In this document: positions 12,790 through 53,966 of the stretch, in pieces
How positions within the stretch are numbered: position 1 is the stretch's first letter
How the letters are laid out: the number at the start of each line of letters is the position of its first letter
Assembly: GCA_038207335.1 (NCBI GenBank)
Contig: JBBQZX010000027.1
Location: 1-64,000 of the forward strand
Direction of reading: 5' to 3'
Source: Chthoniobacterales bacterium
GTDB lineage: Bacteria; Verrucomicrobiota; Verrucomicrobiia; Chthoniobacterales; Chthoniobacteraceae
DNA: 64,000 bases
The notes under the pieces: model-generated
The model's database searches: none
The model's input: the letters and a program-made list of their open reading frames with translations, nothing else
What the model was told of the DNA's origin: nothing
Position numbers and translations under genes: made by a program

Positions 12790-14730
<1,941 letters not shown>

Positions 14731-44356: not shown

Positions 44357-44505
44357 GGGGAACGCCGCAGGCTAAAGGATCTTCGCGGCGAAAGCGCAAT
44401 CGGTCTTGTATCATTTCTCGGACCCGGAGTCCGTTCGTTTTTCCAAATGCGCTTGCGCCTGCGCTCGCCGGCGCGCGATAGTCCGCGCTCTTTTTGACCA
44501 GAAAC

Positions 44506-45798
44506 ATGCAGACTTTCGGCATCGGACTCGCGGGGATGGGCAACGTCGGCGCAGGTGTTTACAAACATCTGACGCAGAATCGCGCCCTGCTCCGGGAGCG
44601 GCTTGGCTACGAACTTGAGGTGAAGAAAATCGCGGTCCGGGATGTCTCGCGTCCCCGTGGGATCGCCGTTCCGGGCGAGTTGCTCACGACGGACTGGCGC
44701 GATTTTCTCGACGATCCGGAGTTGCAAATCGTCGTCGAGCTCATGGGACAAAAGGCGGAGAGTCTCGAGCTGATTCTCGGTGCGATCCAGCGGAAGAAGA
44801 TCGTGGTGACCGGCAACAAGGCGCTGCTGGCAGAGCGTGGGAAGGAGATTTTCGAGGCCGCATTTTTGTACAAAGTTCCGGTTTTTTTTGAGGCTGCGGT
44901 CGGCGGTGGAATTCCGATTATTAAGGCGATTCGAGAGGCGTTCATCGGGAATCACATCCAATCGATCCACGGCATCGTGAATGGCACGAGCAACTACATT
45001 TTGACCCGAATGACGGAGGCCGGGATGGGCTTCCACGAGGCGCTCCGCGAGGCGCAGGAGGCGGGCTACGCGGAGGCCGATCCGGCGCTTGATGTGAATG
45101 GGGGCGATGCAGCGCACAAGGCGATCATCCTCGCATCGCTGGCCTACGGATTTTGGGTGCCGCCGGAGAAAGTTTTCGTGGAGGGGATCGAGCAGCTCAC
45201 CGCGGCGGATATCTGCTTCGCGCGGCGGCTCGGGTATCGCATCAAGCTCCTCGCGATCATCAAAGCCGAGGCCGGCGAGATCGAGGTGCGCGTGCATCCG
45301 ACGCTCATCCCTGAGACGCATGTGCTCGCTAGCGTGAACGGTGTTTTCAACGCGATGGCGGTGCGCGGCGACGTGGTCGGCGAGACGCTCTTCTACGGCC
45401 GCGGCGCAGGCCAGGACGCCACGTCGAGCGCAGTCATCAGCGACCTCGTCGAGGCGGCCGATGCGCTCGCGGCACCGCGGCGCAATCTTGGCTTCATGCC
45501 GCACGGGCTCTACGGCACCTGCAAGCCGATCGCCGGGATCGTTTCGGAGTATTACTTGCGCCTCGCCGTCGATGATCGGCCAGGCGTCATCGCGCAAATC
45601 GCGAGCATTCTCGGCGAGTTGAATGTTGGCATCTCCTCGATCCTCCAGCCCGAGGCGGCGGAGGGCGAAGTCGCGTCACTCGTTCTCATGATCCATCGCG
45701 CGAGCAACTCACAGATCGACTCTGCGCTCGCAAAAATCGGCGCGCTTGGCTGCGTGAAAAAGGCCCCTCGCATGATTAGAGTGGAGCACTTCACATGA
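44506..45798 (+). CDS. hom: Homoserine dehydrogenase (with ACT domain)
   Basis: [37 protein letters not shown]. Confidence 0.97.
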
Positions 45799-46889
45799 CC
45801 TTCCGACCCCTCCATGATCGCGGCGTCATTGCGCGATGGCAGCAATATTTGCCGGTCACGGATTCGACGCCATTCGTCTCGCTGAACGAGGGCTCAACGC
45901 CGCTCATCCACTCGCCAAAACTGAGTGCGCACGTCGGTCGCGCGTGCGAGGTTTTCGTTAAATACGAGGGGCTGAATCCGACCGGGTCGTTCAAGGATCG
46001 CGGGATGACGGTCGCGCTTTCCAAAGCGGTGGAGGACGGCGCGAAAGCAGTCATTTGCGCCTCCACCGGGAACACCTCCGCCGCCGCCGCCGCGTATGCC
46101 GCTCGCGCGGGGATCACCTGCGTCGTGCTTTTGCCGGCGGGGAAAATCGCGTTTGGTAAACTCGCACAGGCGTTCATGTACGGCGCGCGCGTCATCGCGA
46201 TTGACGGGAATTTCGACGACGCATTGCGGCTTGTGCGAGAGATCGGCGAGACCGAACCGATCGCGATCGTGAATTCGATCAACCCGCACCGTTTGCAGGG
46301 CCAAAAGACAGCGGCATTCGAGATTATCGAGGAGCTGGGTGACGCGCCGGATTTTCATGTGCTGCCGGTTGGCAACGCTGGAAACATCAGCGCCTACTGG
46401 CTCGGCTACAGCGAGTTTTTCGACCTAAAAAAGGCAACTCGACGCCCGAGAATGATCGGATTTCAAGCGTCCGGCTCCGCGCCGATTTTCCACAATCAGG
46501 TCGTGGAAAATCCCGAGACTGTCGCGAGCGCGATCCGCATCGGGAACCCTGCGAGCTGGGATTTTGCGACCGCCGCGCTGAAAGAGAGCCGCGGCGCAAT
46601 CGACATCGTCACCGATGAGGAAATCCTTGCCGCGCAAAGCTGGCTTGCGGCGAACGAGGGAATTTTTGTCGAGCCTGCGAGCGCCGCGAGCATCGCGGGG
46701 CTTTTTAAATCACTCGATCCCTCGCGGGTGGAGGAGCGACGTTTTCCGGAAATTCCAGAAGGCAGCCGGATTGTCTGCACGGTGACCGGCCACGGACTCA
46801 AAGACCCGGATGTCGCGAAGGAGCAATGTGGCTCAGTGATTCCGGCGAAAGCGGAGAAAGGCGAAATCCTCCGGCTGATCCAGGGCTGA
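45795..46889 (+). CDS. thrC: Threonine synthase
   Basis: [10 protein letters not shown] (PLP Lys), ASTGNT, PVGNAGN, TGHGLKD. Confidence 0.96.
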
Positions 46890-46954: not shown

Positions 46955-48733
46955 ATGAATTCGCCGTTTCGCTGGATAGATTCCACCTCTTGGGAACTCG
47001 ACCTTTTCGGTCTGCCGCACCAGATTCCGTGGCCTGCGGATGCCGATGAGAAGAGCGCTGCCGAGGATCCGTTCGACTCGGAAACGCTGGTCCGGGGGAT
47101 CGAACTCATGGGAGACGAAGCGGGCGAGCCGTGGATCGGATTCAAACGCGCGTACGCGCATTTCGAGGAGCTTTCGGAGGCGCTGGAGGATTCGGAGATC
47201 CGACGTGCGCGTGAGATTCTTGGCGAGATCGAGGCGGTGCATCCCGGCACCTCGTTCCGCATTTTTCACGAAGCGAATATCGCTCAGCGCGAGGGCCGTT
47301 TTGATGACGCAATCGCTCTTTTCCAACAGGCAGCGGAGAAGACGCCGCTAATCACGGAGATTTGGAATAATCTCGGCGTCGTCTTTGCGATGACCGGGCG
47401 TCGGGAAGAAGCGGTTGCGGCATTTCGCAAAGTGCTCGCGATCGACCAGAACAATCACGTCGCACTCGAAGGCATGACGCAGGTGCGCGAACTTGTGAAG
47501 CTGATGCGCGACGCGGCCGACCCGAAGTCGGCGATGTATGTGGAGTTGCCGGTTTTCAAGCAAATGGCCGCGAAGCAAATCGACGCGATCTCAGGCGATG
47601 CGGCTCAACTGCTCACGTACGGCGAAGAGCTGGTGAAGACGGGAATGGTGCCGGACGTGGGACTGAGCGCTTTGGAAAAGGCACGCGATCTTCAGCCCGA
47701 GGATCCGCGCACGCTTTTCACCCTCGCCTCAGCGTATCGCGCGATGGGAAAAATCGTCGAGTCGCGCACCATCGCGGTGCGCATGACGGAGCTGCTGCCG
47801 GAGAGCGACGAGGCGTTTTTTCACCTCGCGCAAATCTGTAACGCGATGGAAGACTCCGCCGCTGAGCGCGCCGCGCTGGGGAGAGCGGTGGAGCTGAATC
47901 CGAACATGCAGGCGGCCCTCGCGGTCTGGTTCCAATTGAAGCCCGGCGAGCACGATCCGGCGAAGGAGCAGCAGTTGCTCGATTTTGCGGAGAGCAAAAA
48001 CTCGTGGATGGCATTCATCCTCGCGAGCGCCCTGTGCCGCGAGCGCGGCGATTTCAAGCGGGCGATGAAATTGGCCGAGCGCGCGGTCGACCTAGCGCCG
48101 GATTCCGAGGAGGCACTGCTGCATTTCACCGCGACGATCGGTGATGCGAAAGACATCGCGAAGCTCGCGAAGGAAGTGAAGCCTAAGGTGATCAGCGGCA
48201 AGTTTTCACGCCGGCTTGTTTGGAATTACGCGCATGTTTTGCGGCAGGTCGGGCTTGCGCAAGACGCGCTCGCGGCGCTGAAAAAAGCGGCATCTGGCGA
48301 CGCGCCCGACGATTTCAAGGCGGCGTGCGTGACTACGATCGAGGCGTGGAGTGGGATGCTCACCGGCACGGGCGTGCCGCTCGAGGTGCATCAATCCGGC
48401 GTGCTGCTGCGCGACGTGCTGCTCACGGTCGATGACGATGACGGCGGCGTGGTGCTGAGTGCCGGGGCGCGTTTGCCGGAGCAGGGGAGTTTCAAATGGC
48501 GCGCGGACGGTGTGGAGACGAGCGTTTTTTTGCAGCAGGGCCAGAGCGGCGGCGCACCGGAGCCGCAGAGCCTCGGTGAGTTCAAGATCCGCGGCATTCA
48601 AACACAGCCTGACGGCCCGACGACGATCGAGTGCCACATCACCGCGCTGGCTGATGGCGCGCTGCACTTCCGCGCGGCGCAAAACGGCAGGCGGTTGCCG
48701 GTCGGCTGGGCGCCGCCGCGCGTGCGTGTGTAA
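46955..48733 (+). CDS. TPR-repeat protein with C-terminal Hsp70 substrate-binding-like domain
   Basis: Multiple TPRs (IWNNLGVV...EAVAAFRKVLAIDQ; AVELNP); C-terminus aligns by eye to the DnaK SBD-beta. Confidence 0.75.
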   Translation: MNSPFRWIDSTSWELDLFGLPHQIPWPADADEKSAAEDPFDSETLVRGIELMGDEAGEPWIGFKRAYAHFEELSEALEDSEIRRAREILGEIEAVHPGTSFRIFHEANIAQREGRFDDAIALFQQAAEKTPLITEIWNNLGVVFAMTGRREEAVAAFRKVLAIDQNNHVALEGMTQVRELVKLMRDAADPKSAMYVELPVFKQMAAKQIDAISGDAAQLLTYGEELVKTGMVPDVGLSALEKARDLQPEDPRTLFTLASAYRAMGKIVESRTIAVRMTELLPESDEAFFHLAQICNAMEDSAAERAALGRAVELNPNMQAALAVWFQLKPGEHDPAKEQQLLDFAESKNSWMAFILASALCRERGDFKRAMKLAERAVDLAPDSEEALLHFTATIGDAKDIAKLAKEVKPKVISGKFSRRLVWNYAHVLRQVGLAQDALAALKKAASGDAPDDFKAACVTTIEAWSGMLTGTGVPLEVHQSGVLLRDVLLTVDDDDGGVVLSAGARLPEQGSFKWRADGVETSVFLQQGQSGGAPEPQSLGEFKIRGIQTQPDGPTTIECHITALADGALHFRAAQNGRRLPVGWAPPRVRV

Positions 48734-48735
48734 GT

Positions 48736-49593
48736 TCAGCGCGCGAAGCGGAAAAAAGCGTTCGCCGCCGTCTCGGTTTGCGCGGAGATTTGATCGACCG
48801 ATGTGCCGCGAAGACGCGCGATGTGCTCCGCGACGAGGCGCGTGTGGGCGGGCTCGCACCGTTTTCCGCGATGCGGCACGGGCGCTAGAAATGGGCAGTC
48901 CGTCTCGACCATGAACGAGCCGTCGGGCAGTCCGGCGGCGGTCTGCTGCACGGTCGCGGCGTTTTTGAAAGTGACGAGGCCGGTGAATGAGACGAGATGA
49001 TTTTGTTCTCGGAGTTCGTGTGCTTGCGCGAGGCTTTTTCCGAAGCAGTGAAAGACCGCGCGGAGCTTGCCGGCGTACGGCGCGAGGATCGCAAGCGTGT
49101 CGTCCCACGCATCGCGCTCGTGAATGATAACGTTCAGTCCGAGCTCGATCGCGAGTTCGAGTTGCTGCTCGAATACCGCCGCCTGCGTGGCTTTCAACGA
49201 GCCGTCAGCCAGAGCATTGGGAAATTCGCCCGGCAGCTCCGTGCTCACCGCGCCGACAGCAGCCAGGAAAAAACCTGGCGTGCTGAGGCTCGGCAGCCGG
49301 TGGTAGTCGAGGCCGATTTCACCCATCGCGACGACCCGCTGGCTTTCCGCGAGCGCGCGCAGTTCTTCAATGAAATCCTCACCTGCCTCGTTCGCGGCAT
49401 TCGGATGTATGCCGATCGCCGCGAAAACGTTCGCGTGCTTCTCCGCAAGCGCGACCGCCCTCCGGCTCCCTTCCACCGAAGTCCCGATCGTCACAATTCG
49501 CCGCACGCCTGCTGCCTCCGCTCGCGCGAAAATCTCCGGCAAACCTTCCTCAAACTCCGGAAAGTCGAGATGCGCGTGGGTGTCGGTCAGCAT
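48736..49593 (-). CDS. tatD: TatD family hydrolase
   Basis: DTHAH, GIHP, GEIGLDY, IHER, HCF, ETDCPFLAP. Confidence 0.93.
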   Translation of the reverse strand: MLTDTHAHLDFPEFEEGLPEIFARAEAAGVRRIVTIGTSVEGSRRAVALAEKHANVFAAIGIHPNAANEAGEDFIEELRALAESQRVVAMGEIGLDYHRLPSLSTPGFFLAAVGAVSTELPGEFPNALADGSLKATQAAVFEQQLELAIELGLNVIIHERDAWDDTLAILAPYAGKLRAVFHCFGKSLAQAHELREQNHLVSFTGLVTFKNAATVQQTAAGLPDGSFMVETDCPFLAPVPHRGKRCEPAHTRLVAEHIARLRGTSVDQISAQTETAANAFFRFAR

Positions 49594-51819: not shown

Positions 51820-53424
51820 CTATTCGGATGCCAAGAGGTCCGCCGGGGAGGGCCGATTTTCGCGGAGAAGATATCGGATTTCGTGCGGCGCGAGTTCGCG
51901 GTCTGCGATGAAAAGTTCATCGATGTCGCCGCGGAAAGATCTGCCGTTGCGCCCCGCAGCGGGAGCACGTCCGATCCAAAGTTCATTACCAGCTTGTGCG
52001 CCGTCCACGATTGCCCGGTGCCGCCCGCCTCCGCGAGTCGAGCCGCCTTCGAGTCTGCCATCGACGTAGCATTTGACCTGCATCCGTCCGTCTGCGTGTG
52101 CGCTTGCAGGTAGGACGACCGCGAGGTGATGCCACTGCCCATCGCGGAGCGAAGTAGTGCCGACGCGGGAATTGCGGCCGATGCCCGTGCTGACTGCACC
52201 GAGCGCGCCGAGAGTTGGGTCGGCGTTCCAACTGATCGTGGCGAGCCGCGCGCTTTTGCCGGGGAGTTGCCAGGCCAGCATTGCGCCCGCGTCGTCGAGC
52301 GAAGCCCCAGCCGGCACGCGTGTCCAGAATGCGATGGTGCGTGCAGCGCGCTTTCCGGGGCGGGGGAGGGGAGCAGTGGCGAAAGTCGCGCCATCGAGAT
52401 GCAAAGCATTTCCGTGCAATCCGACGATGTGCGCGGCAGCAGCCGCGGGTTCGAGCCGCGCGTCGAACGAGCCGCGCATTTTGTCGCTCAAATCGGCGCG
52501 AATCGCCGGGCCCTCCGCGTCATCGAAGCTCCAGTGGACATACTCCGGGGCGCGCGCAGCACGCTCGAATGAAACCTGCCTGGCGAGCCGCGCGAACTTC
52601 TGCTCGCGATCGCGAATGTCACTCCTGCCGCCGCGAGCGAAGCGCGAGGCCTGCTTTTCTCGAAGCGTAACCGGCGCGCTCAGCCGACCATTCGCATCGC
52701 TTGCCGATGCCTCCACGGCACCCTCGAGCACGAGCACTTCGGCGGCACCGTTCCCGTCCGCGATCATGCTGAATTCCGTGCCGAGATCGACGACCTCGAC
52801 CGCGGGATTCTCGATGCGAAAACCCACAGCTTCATGCGGCACTTTCGCCGTCAGCGTCCCGCGCTCGAGCACGGCGTCCCACGCGGAATTCAGCTCCAGC
52901 GACGCCGGCCCCTCCAGTTCGACACGCGCTCCGCAGTCGAACGTGATCTCCGCGAAGCCGCTTCGCAGCTTGATTTGCTGGCCACGGCGCAATGCGTCTC
53001 CGATGGCGAGCGCGGCTCCGTCCCATTGGATATCCTTCCCGCCCGACAGCCGCGCGACCGACTCTTCCACTTCCGTTTCATTGTCCGCGAGTTCTTCGGA
53101 ATGCTGTCGCCGAGCCGAATCGCCAAACCAAATCGCGACCATGATTTCCGCCGCAGCCGCGAGCCCGGCGAGCGTCCACCACAGCGCCGCGGGCCGCTTT
53201 TTTAGCACGATGACGCGCGCATCCGGAGCCTCGGATTGCATCTCGCTTGCGTAGCTGAAAAGGCTCGCCGAAAGCGACATCGCGCGGACGTAAAAACGCC
53301 GGGCATCAGCAGAACTCGCGAGCATCTGCGCGAGACGCGCTCTCTGCGCGTCGGTGGCACGCCCATCCGCGAGAGCGCTGCACAGTTCGTTGAGTTCCAG
53401 AGTTTCGGAGTCAGTGAGATTCAC
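51820..53424 (-). CDS. FecR-like anti-sigma factor with LamG-like domain
   Basis: N-terminal helical domain + TM; VVDLGTEF, V.EG.V FecR motifs; DGQWHHLAV..YVDG LamG motif. Confidence 0.85.
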   Translation of the reverse strand: MNLTDSETLELNELCSALADGRATDAQRARLAQMLASSADARRFYVRAMSLSASLFSYASEMQSEAPDARVIVLKKRPAALWWTLAGLAAAAEIMVAIWFGDSARRQHSEELADNETEVEESVARLSGGKDIQWDGAALAIGDALRRGQQIKLRSGFAEITFDCGARVELEGPASLELNSAWDAVLERGTLTAKVPHEAVGFRIENPAVEVVDLGTEFSMIADGNGAAEVLVLEGAVEASASDANGRLSAPVTLREKQASRFARGGRSDIRDREQKFARLARQVSFERAARAPEYVHWSFDDAEGPAIRADLSDKMRGSFDARLEPAAAAAHIVGLHGNALHLDGATFATAPLPRPGKRAARTIAFWTRVPAGASLDDAGAMLAWQLPGKSARLATISWNADPTLGALGAVSTGIGRNSRVGTTSLRDGQWHHLAVVLPASAHADGRMQVKCYVDGRLEGGSTRGGGRHRAIVDGAQAGNELWIGRAPAAGRNGRSFRGDIDELFIADRELAPHEIRYLLRENRPSPADLLASE

Positions 53425-53966
53425 ACATTTCCCTCGGTGGCGAGTTGGTTGCTCACACAGTCGAGCAGCAGTTTGCGCAGCCGCGTGAGCGCTTTGTAGG
53501 CGGCCTCCAGCGTGCGCCCAGAGCGGCGCGCCGCGTCATCCACGCTGCTCCCCGGCTCGTATCTCGTGAGCACGAGTTCGCGGTCGCGCGGAGCGAGCTT
53601 TTTGAGACACTCGGCGAGTGCTTCATGGCGTGCGCCGGTTTCCTCAGCCATCTCGGAAGCGGTTTGCGCGAGCGCATCGACGACTTCCTGATCGAAGATC
53701 ACTTTTGCCCGCGCAAATTTCTGCCGCGCCGCGCGCACCTGCCAATATGCGATCTGGCAGGCCCACGCGGCGAAGTCCGTCCCGATCGTGAATGCGTCGA
53801 ATTTTTCGCACACGACGAGGCTGGTCTGTTGCAGGAGGTCTTCCGCATCGTGCCGGTCCGGCACGAGCGTATAGATGTAGGAGAAAATCCGCCGCTGGTG
53901 CTGCGTCATCAGCAGCATCAGATGCTGCGCGCGGGAAAGATCACCCGCGGCGGATTCATCCTGCAT
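53421..53966 (-). CDS. ECF sigma-70 factor (Rhodopirellula/Verrucomicrobium type)
   Basis: DAEDLLQ, F.AWA..IA, L.ECL.KL, ALTRLR..L.DC; overlaps the FecR gene start. Confidence 0.9.
   Translation of the reverse strand: MQDESAAGDLSRAQHLMLLMTQHQRRIFSYIYTLVPDRHDAEDLLQQTSLVVCEKFDAFTIGTDFAAWACQIAYWQVRAARQKFARAKVIFDQEVVDALAQTASEMAEETGARHEALAECLKKLAPRDRELVLTRYEPGSSVDDAARRSGRTLEAAYKALTRLRKLLLDCVSNQLATEGNV

Follow-up and report, generated by a model that had tools for sequence, protein, structure and literature searches.

A gene within the 64,000-nucleotide stretch of Chthoniobacterales DNA analysed here (the window) encodes a protein, P0001, in which a TPR solenoid is followed by a detached domain homologous to the β-sandwich of the Hsp70 substrate-binding domain (SBD-β). 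P0001 is not an Hsp70, because both the nucleotide-binding domain (NBD) and the helical lid (SBD-α) are missing, and it is a member of the SBD-β homology group by sequence and fold. The Hsp70 SBD, normally treated as inseparable from the ATPase, occurs here as a stable and conserved domain of a non-Hsp70 protein. No description of a TPR protein with a detached SBD was found in the open-access literature searched, and the architecture, which the original prediction did not recognise as characterised, is apparently undescribed so far. The reverse case, an Hsp70 minus its peptide-binding domain, and fusions of NBD plus SBD appear in PMC7159879 and PMC11090510, respectively. The features of the gene and its surroundings are compiled in Table 1.

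Table 1. Features of the window discussed in the text, with window positions
Feature	Position	Strand	Basis or remark
Canonical DnaK of the window (comparison)	12790..14730	+	Of the three Hsp70 types in the genome, the one nearest to the domain
hom-thrC, 65 bp upstream of the TPR-SBD gene	44494..46889	+	Frequent, not constant neighbour
Gene for TPR + DnaK-SBD-β-like protein (P0001)	46955..48733	+	ORF, 592 aa
Conserved N-terminal module, aa 5-27, two predicted strands	46967..47035	+	Alignment, model
TPR/helical solenoid, aa 60-466	47132..48352	+	Pfam, AF2 model, fold search
Predicted β-hairpin within solenoid, aa 180-197	47492..47545	+	Model
Extension ahead of SBD-β-like domain, aa 467-484	48353..48406	+	Structural alignment
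DnaK-derived SBD-β-like sandwich, aa 485-586 (DnaK about 396-501), eight strands	48407..48712	+	Profile, AF2, structural alignment
L1,2 equivalent, aa 491-498, acidic, Gly-rich	48425..48448	+	Family alignment
Pocket edge and L3,4, W515-V524	48497..48526	+	Profile, family alignment
L5,6 equivalent, variable	48596..48625	+	Family alignment
Short Pro-containing tail and stop codon, at the place of the DnaK helical lid	48713..48733	+	Alignment, model

Domain organization of P0001

The start methionine of P0001 has its equivalent at the start of the homologs. By-eye inspection shows no signal peptide, which suggests a cytoplasmic location. Within the short N-terminal module, residues W7, W13, E14, L20, P21, P25, W26 and P27 are invariant; no known match was found for this module, and an Atlas search with residues 1–100 gave nothing informative. 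Pfam TPR families cover about residues 76–459 and, like the model and the fold searches, reveal a superhelix of 34-residue helix-turn-helix repeats, in agreement with the TPR/helical repeats predicted for the N-terminal part. The conserved solenoid residues W137, E338, R362, R364, E385, R420 and W423 are candidates for a partner surface, and those of the last repeats (R362, R364, E385, R420 and W423) may, together with the invariant N-terminal Trp/Pro motif, form partner surfaces. OGT, Tom70/71 and P58IPK share the TPR superhelix, but the matches are generic and none of these scaffolds and co-chaperones has an Hsp70 SBD. Inspection by eye against the known motif shows no clear carboxylate clamp of the Hop/CHIP/Tom70 type, and the window DnaK lacks the EEVD tail that such a clamp would bind. 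P0001 had no NCBIfam match at cut-off and its C-terminal domain none at all; a promoter scan gave a result at chance level.

The full-length AF2 model (pLDDT 93.1) matched only TPR proteins in fold searches, and the C-terminal domain was therefore folded alone. The resulting model (pLDDT 93.6) contains eight sandwich strands arranged in two four-stranded sheets. Foldseek and VIA-align both matched it to Hsp70 SBD-β, with Z up to 13.1 and an rmsd of 2.5 over 106 residues, whereas no non-Hsp70 chain among the 48,161 compared exceeded a Z of 4.9.

Sequence comparisons point in the same direction. The Pfam HSP70 match to residues 526–578 of P0001 is weak (E 0.0013, below cut-off), while the domain alone scores 21.1 bits against a cut-off of 20.6; 17 of 56 family members match PF00012 at E ≤ 0.1, and no other family is matched. 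The last 122 residues align with the window DnaK in BLASTP with a pairwise E of 8e-5. In a phmmer search of the PDB the best 30 matches listed were all Hsp70s (top E 1.6e-4), and with a profile of the domain built from 56 family sequences the best 60 of 67 matches were likewise all Hsp70s (top E 4.9e-7). Although identity to DnaK is only about 17–21%, P419, Q442, G443, L454 and G455 (DnaK numbering) are invariant in all 98 sequences compared. Homology of the domain to Hsp70 SBD-β is thus well beyond chance.

The original prediction had noted this likeness by eye in the last ~100 residues, and both the profile and the comparison of the modelled domain with the DnaK SBD bear it out. The span given for the domain, about 48400–48690, has to be corrected to about 48407–48712. 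The alignment by eye of VLLRDV to the DnaK linker is also shifted from its proper register, as residue 480 corresponds structurally to DnaK 391 and the position of D487 is Pro in 80 of 98 sequences. Residues 480–485 superpose on DnaK 391–396, the interdomain linker; the sequence differs there, and profile matches begin only at DnaK 411. Residues 466–471 were considered as an NBD end or a substrate peptide and rejected, since this likeness was seen by eye and is backed by no alignment.

Two further parts of the prediction, the missing NBD and the missing lid, also hold. Residues 60–466 are TPR/helical according to Pfam and the models and leave no NBD, which supports the proposed independence of ATP. 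The chain ends 4–15 residues past the last conserved Trp (W585) in all 98 sequences, and neither AF2 model (full-length or domain) has a helix after the last strand. None of 1151 candidates of 1037–2960 aa scored as a longer fused form, which is weak evidence.

An Atlas search with residues 465–592 matched clusters of short (95–139 aa) bacterial Hsp70-domain proteins. Its matches include a DUF5716_C cluster (score 0.90), and DUF5716_C may, as a lead only, be another SBD-like domain.

Distribution, conservation and origin of the family

About 100 full-length homologs were found, of about 590 aa and with 41–77% identity. The TPR-SBD gene is present in 98 of 138 Chthoniobacteraceae genomes, nearly all-or-none by genus, and gives a single match in 95 of 99 positive genomes (source genome counted); no copy turned up in 218 genomes sampled from the order's other families, for each of which five candidates were scored. 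Labels of the 70 GTDB loci are mostly Chthoniobacteraceae, Chthoniobacterales or Spartobacteria, including Chthoniobacter flavus Ellin428, the rest being broader or discordant. A whole-library HMM search yielded 73 matches, among them distant members with 20–29% identity and the same architecture, and a metagenome scan with one distant member returned no locus. When a sample of the phylum was searched with the domain profile, weak matches (≤32.6 bits) came from 125 of 350 other genomes; most lay in frames as long as DnaK, the identity as DnaK being confirmed only for the match in the source genome. The meaning of the family is limited by its confinement, within the genomes searched, to one bacterial family, and by the chance that its groove has simply been retired.

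Three genomes (G681, G686 and G689) carry divergent extra copies (L096–L099) in variable contexts. These copies adjoin SseB-, DUF4469-, DUF5131- and GMT-wHTH-like genes, and two of them share a neighbouring unannotated ORF of about 240 aa.

The domain (conservation 0.65) is as conserved as the TPR part (0.61–0.69) and hence maintained. Among the three Hsp70 types of the genome, canonical DnaK scores best against the domain (E 5e-7), followed by the HscA-like group (6e-5 to 3e-3) and the lidless group (0.018–1.3), which points to canonical DnaK as the probable origin of the domain. Descent from the genome's lidless 519-aa Hsp70 was rejected on account of the worst score of the three main types.

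Anatomy of the peptide site

With the SBD-β of DnaK and other Hsp70s (PF00012; 7KRT, 4B9Q, 1DKX) the domain shares the eight-stranded sandwich, the five invariant residues listed above and pocket positions that are hydrophobic, though substituted. It differs from DnaK in being fused behind TPRs and in lacking not only NBD and lid but also the arch, L3,4, L5,6, the latch, K414 and N415 in their DnaK form. Positions are given in E. coli DnaK numbering, which was taken from the HMM alignment for 411–492 and extended without gaps, the N-terminal offset agreeing with the structural alignment; counts refer to 98 sequences, one of 99 having been dropped for a gap near the C-terminus. The roles of DnaK residues 404, 426, 429, 436, 438 and 467 in the peptide site follow PMC8215388, those of 414, 440, 481, 484 and 148 follow PMC4595643 and that of 483 follows PMC7968864.

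The pocket positions I401, F426, V436 and I438 are occupied by hydrophobic residues or Thr in 98, 98, 94 and 98 of the 98 sequences, respectively. The equivalent of I401 is L, I or V, that of I438 is V, I or L, and F426 is replaced by W in 96 of 98. At V436, which corresponds to T522 of P0001, the main family has small residues (T, V and A in 38, 27 and 24 of 98 sequences) rather than a blocking Phe. Position 474 is Cys in 97 of 98, and L1,2 is conserved and acidic and has the DnaK length in 92 of 98. Since the four pocket positions are still hydrophobic, peptide binding of narrow specificity is possible. The surroundings of the pocket have changed: arch position 404 is mostly D, P or E (49, 19 and 15 of 98), arch position 429 is variable, L3,4 is shorter than in DnaK in 90 of 98 (by three residues in 81), L5,6 is shorter by 1–5 residues in 60, and latch residue R467 is not kept in the family. 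Of the positions at which the NBD docks, K414 (Ala in 89 of 98), N415 (Gly in 98 of 98) and I483 (Ala in 61 of 98) are lost, while D481 and L484 are retained in 83 and 80 of 98. In 10 distant members the pocket positions vary, and Q442, G455 and a terminal LxxxW stay.

For a statistical comparison we used a list of 15 peptide-site positions, of which those without a role named above are general background. At these 15 positions the family is 7% identical to DnaK versus 19% elsewhere, a depletion that is not significant (P 0.08 for identity, 0.33 for BLOSUM). For the nine loop/polar positions the values are 3% and 18% (permutation P about 0.03), to be read with the facts that four position sets were tried and that part of the site list is general background. 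The six hydrophobic positions show no depletion, and their conservation within the family is 0.77 compared with 0.65 for the rest. Other NBD-less fusions also use a detached DnaK SBD-β as a module, but they keep a near-canonical site, which is 61% identical to DnaK versus 37% elsewhere (top 0.2% of random sets), in a comparison set that was itself selected by likeness to DnaK. That set comprised 23 of 37 domains (13 clearly multi-domain proteins), short or doubtful records having been dropped; eight Hsp70-like proteins had been set aside before it was chosen.

A predicted open, ATP-like conformation

The modelled domain resembles ATP-bound or docked Hsp70s (VIA-align Z 12.1–13.1 for the best 12 listed) more than peptide-bound or isolated SBDs (8.7–10.0). 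Individual values are 13.1 for 7krt, 12.9 for 4b9q and 5e84, 12.2 for 4jn4 and 11.5–13.1 for AMPylated BiP; we take the AMPylated BiP and ATP-state structures in this ranking to be domain-docked Hsp70s. Foldseek ranks the conformations in the same order, with E 1.1e-5 and rmsd 3.4 for 4jn4 (ATP) versus E 4.8e-4 and rmsd 5.3 for 4jnf (isolated SBD). This ranking is not due to the short L3,4 alone, because 4jn4 and 4jnf carry the same shortened loop and yet differ, and because the loop-modified isolated BiP SBD 5e86 reaches a Z of only 9.7 as compared with 12.9 for ATP-BiP. The SBD-β-like domain is thus predicted to adopt an open, ATP-like, low-affinity shape.

In the alignments to ATP-state structures, model residue 11 (P475) pairs with residue 148 of the chain in 7krt, 4b9q and 5nro and with 178 in BiP. 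In DnaK, NBD residue D148 contacts L484 where the NBD docks on SBD-β (PMC4595643). Because residue about 475 superposes on D148, the extension 467–484 appears in the model to occupy the NBD-docking position, as judged from few residues only.

What such a shape would mean for peptide binding depends on the source, since the ATP state of DnaK is a non-binder in PMC7968864 and a fast-exchange binder in PMC8215388. According to the former, the restraining state binds peptide poorly if at all; according to the latter, ATP-state Hsp70 has a 10–50-fold lower affinity and exchanges fast. Peptide binding, with a fast off-rate, persists in the DnaK SBD after loss of the lid (PMC6017645). If the predicted shape is real, the domain would be a small NBD-free stand-in for the open or restraining state and would allow a direct test of peptide binding.

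Possible functions

The explanation that we favour, though held tentatively and with slightly less than even confidence, is that P0001 is a TPR solenoid capped by an open-locked, DnaK-derived sandwich whose groove is largely retired, and that it works independently of ATP as the scaffold of one dedicated partner, not as a general chaperone. The extension 467–484, lying where the NBD normally docks, would possibly hold the sandwich open; the partner would be held mainly by the conserved Arg/Trp surfaces of the TPRs and by faces of the sandwich outside the groove, and any binding of peptide in the groove would be weak and fast-exchanging. Given the predicted open, weak-binding shape, a scaffold seems likelier than a chaperone. 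Favouring this reading are also the low identity of the site to DnaK, the variation of the pocket in distant members, the maintenance of the domain and the absence of chaperone genes from the surroundings in 70 loci. It is weakened by the hydrophobic pocket with its small V436 equivalent and by the conservation of the six hydrophobic site positions, and further because the depletion at the 15 positions is not significant, the conformation is that of a predicted structure and similarity to DnaK guided the choice of the comparison set.

The same pocket features underlie the main rival, a peptide receptor of narrow specificity, which we regard as a possible but rather unlikely alternative. Here the groove would be in use, its specificity shifted by W426, C474 and the acidic L1,2 to a single client motif in the way that HscA is specialised for IscU, and the TPRs would hold either the remainder of the client or another protein. 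The near-invariance of W426 and C474 in the main family and the preserved L1,2 agree with this, as does the residual binding of the lidless DnaK SBD described above. However, the pocket residues are at the same time part of the sandwich core, arch and L3,4 have become variable or shorter, distant members lack the pocket residues and the modelled shape is ATP-like. Non-canonical use of the SBD is known from Hsp110/Sse1 and Ssz1, which match the domain structurally (Z 10.2 for Sse1, 9.6 for Ssz1) but are eukaryotic and both retain an NBD. A precedent is HscA, in which changes in pocket and arch, with a weak latch, narrow specificity (PMC8215388). In contrast to P0001, HscA keeps NBD, lid and J-protein coupling, and the P0001 domain is nearer to DnaK than to the HscA-like group of its genome.

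The original prediction of a holdase or substrate adaptor stands in its second part, an adaptor role being plausible still. A general ATP-independent holdase, in which the detached SBD would bind exposed hydrophobic segments of many clients and prevent aggregation, is improbable. True SBD-β homology and the hydrophobic pocket would be compatible with it, and an open site with fast exchange might in principle buffer clients, but arch, L3,4, L5,6 and the R467 latch are not kept, there is neither a lid nor more than a single site per chain, identity of the site to DnaK is low and the 70 loci offer no chaperone gene context. Moreover, in either nucleotide state Hsp70s acting on their own suppress aggregation poorly (PMC8215388).

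Very unlikely, in our view, is a role as regulator or decoy of the host DnaK, in which an ATP-like SBD mimic would dock in trans on the DnaK NBD or engage J-domain proteins and so tune the cycle; an ATP cycle driven by J-proteins and NEFs is impossible in cis, as there is no NBD. The closeness of the domain to canonical DnaK, its modelled shape and the retained D481 and L484 would fit such mimicry. The losses at K414, N415 and I483 argue against it, and in the model the protein's own extension sits at the docking position. In addition, a survey of 33 genomes showed no NBD-only Hsp70 that consistently accompanies the gene; by the same finding, a split Hsp70 with an NBD-only partner was rejected.

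Gene neighbourhood

Surveying architecture and neighbourhood showed the protein to be conserved in Chthoniobacteraceae, with dnaK or groEL in none of 70 related loci (flanks up to 6 kb, many shorter); the window dnaK lies 32 kb from the TPR-SBD gene. In 28 of 60 informative loci the gene immediately upstream is thrC, and in 20 of 63 the gene immediately downstream is aspartokinase-like, but an assembly factor or scaffold for the threonine-pathway enzymes Hom, ThrC and aspartokinase is highly improbable, since the link is missing from about half of the loci, divergent paralogs occur in unrelated contexts, and hom adjoins thrC also in 13 of 13 non-carrier loci (16 non-carrier genomes searched, thrC match in 13), one of which has hom-thrC-ask contiguous. 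As non-carriers hold hom-thrC together too, the link is most simply inherited gene order within one clade.

The TPR-SBD gene and a convergent tatD end 2 bp apart (48733–48736), an arrangement found in 2 of 70 related loci. Further downstream (51820–53966), a sigma-70 family gene is followed by a FecR/LamG-like anti-σ candidate, both labelled by eye.

Other detached SBDs and a lidless Hsp70

SBD-β recurs in several non-Hsp70 architectures and is therefore reusable as a module. P0171 (304 aa) is an ECF σ factor fused to a lidless DnaK SBD-β (residues 189–286) without NBD and with a largely intact peptide site; its cluster has five members with two full-length records. It is a candidate for a σ factor that senses unfolded peptides, and no relevant paper on an ECF σ–SBD fusion was found in the open-access literature searched. 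P0149, P0150, P0156, P0168 and P0181 contain two tandem near-canonical SBD-β domains and no NBD; four of them have signal-peptide- or lipoprotein-like N-termini (by eye), four end in a lid, and P0149, P0150, P0156 and P0168 are tandem-SBD lipoprotein-like proteins. Further NBD-less SBD-β fusions are P0147 and P0176 (both kinase/DnaJ_C), P0165, P0173, P0190, P0163 and P0182. These include a Ser/Thr kinase with two SBDs and DnaJ_C, two SBDs, one with SHOCT, and forms that by eye are membrane-anchor-like or zinc-ribbon-like.

It is tempting to speculate, though we consider it doubtful, that the SBD sandwich is a free mobile module in bacteria. In the TPR-SBD family its own N-terminal extension would take the place of the ATPase domain and freeze the sandwich ATP-like and open, so that, mounted on a TPR scaffold, it would receive clients without nucleotide and exchange them fast; in the sister fusions (kinases, lipoprotein-like proteins and the ECF σ factor) the module, left intact, would sense unfolded peptides. 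If true, the frozen-open receptor would represent a naturally locked form of the very Hsp70 state on whose affinity for peptides opinions differ. Detached SBDs that keep intact sites, taken as a wider group, may merit separate study.

A conserved 519-aa Hsp70 (L003, G000:C36:26640-28151, and L076–L085) consists of NBD, long acidic linker insertion, SBD-β and one short helix, with no lid. A match of such span occurs in 27 of 33 family genomes, with no co-occurrence with the TPR gene. L003 is flanked by a GrpE-like gene on one side and a J-like/FGE-sulfatase-like gene on the other, both recognised by eye.
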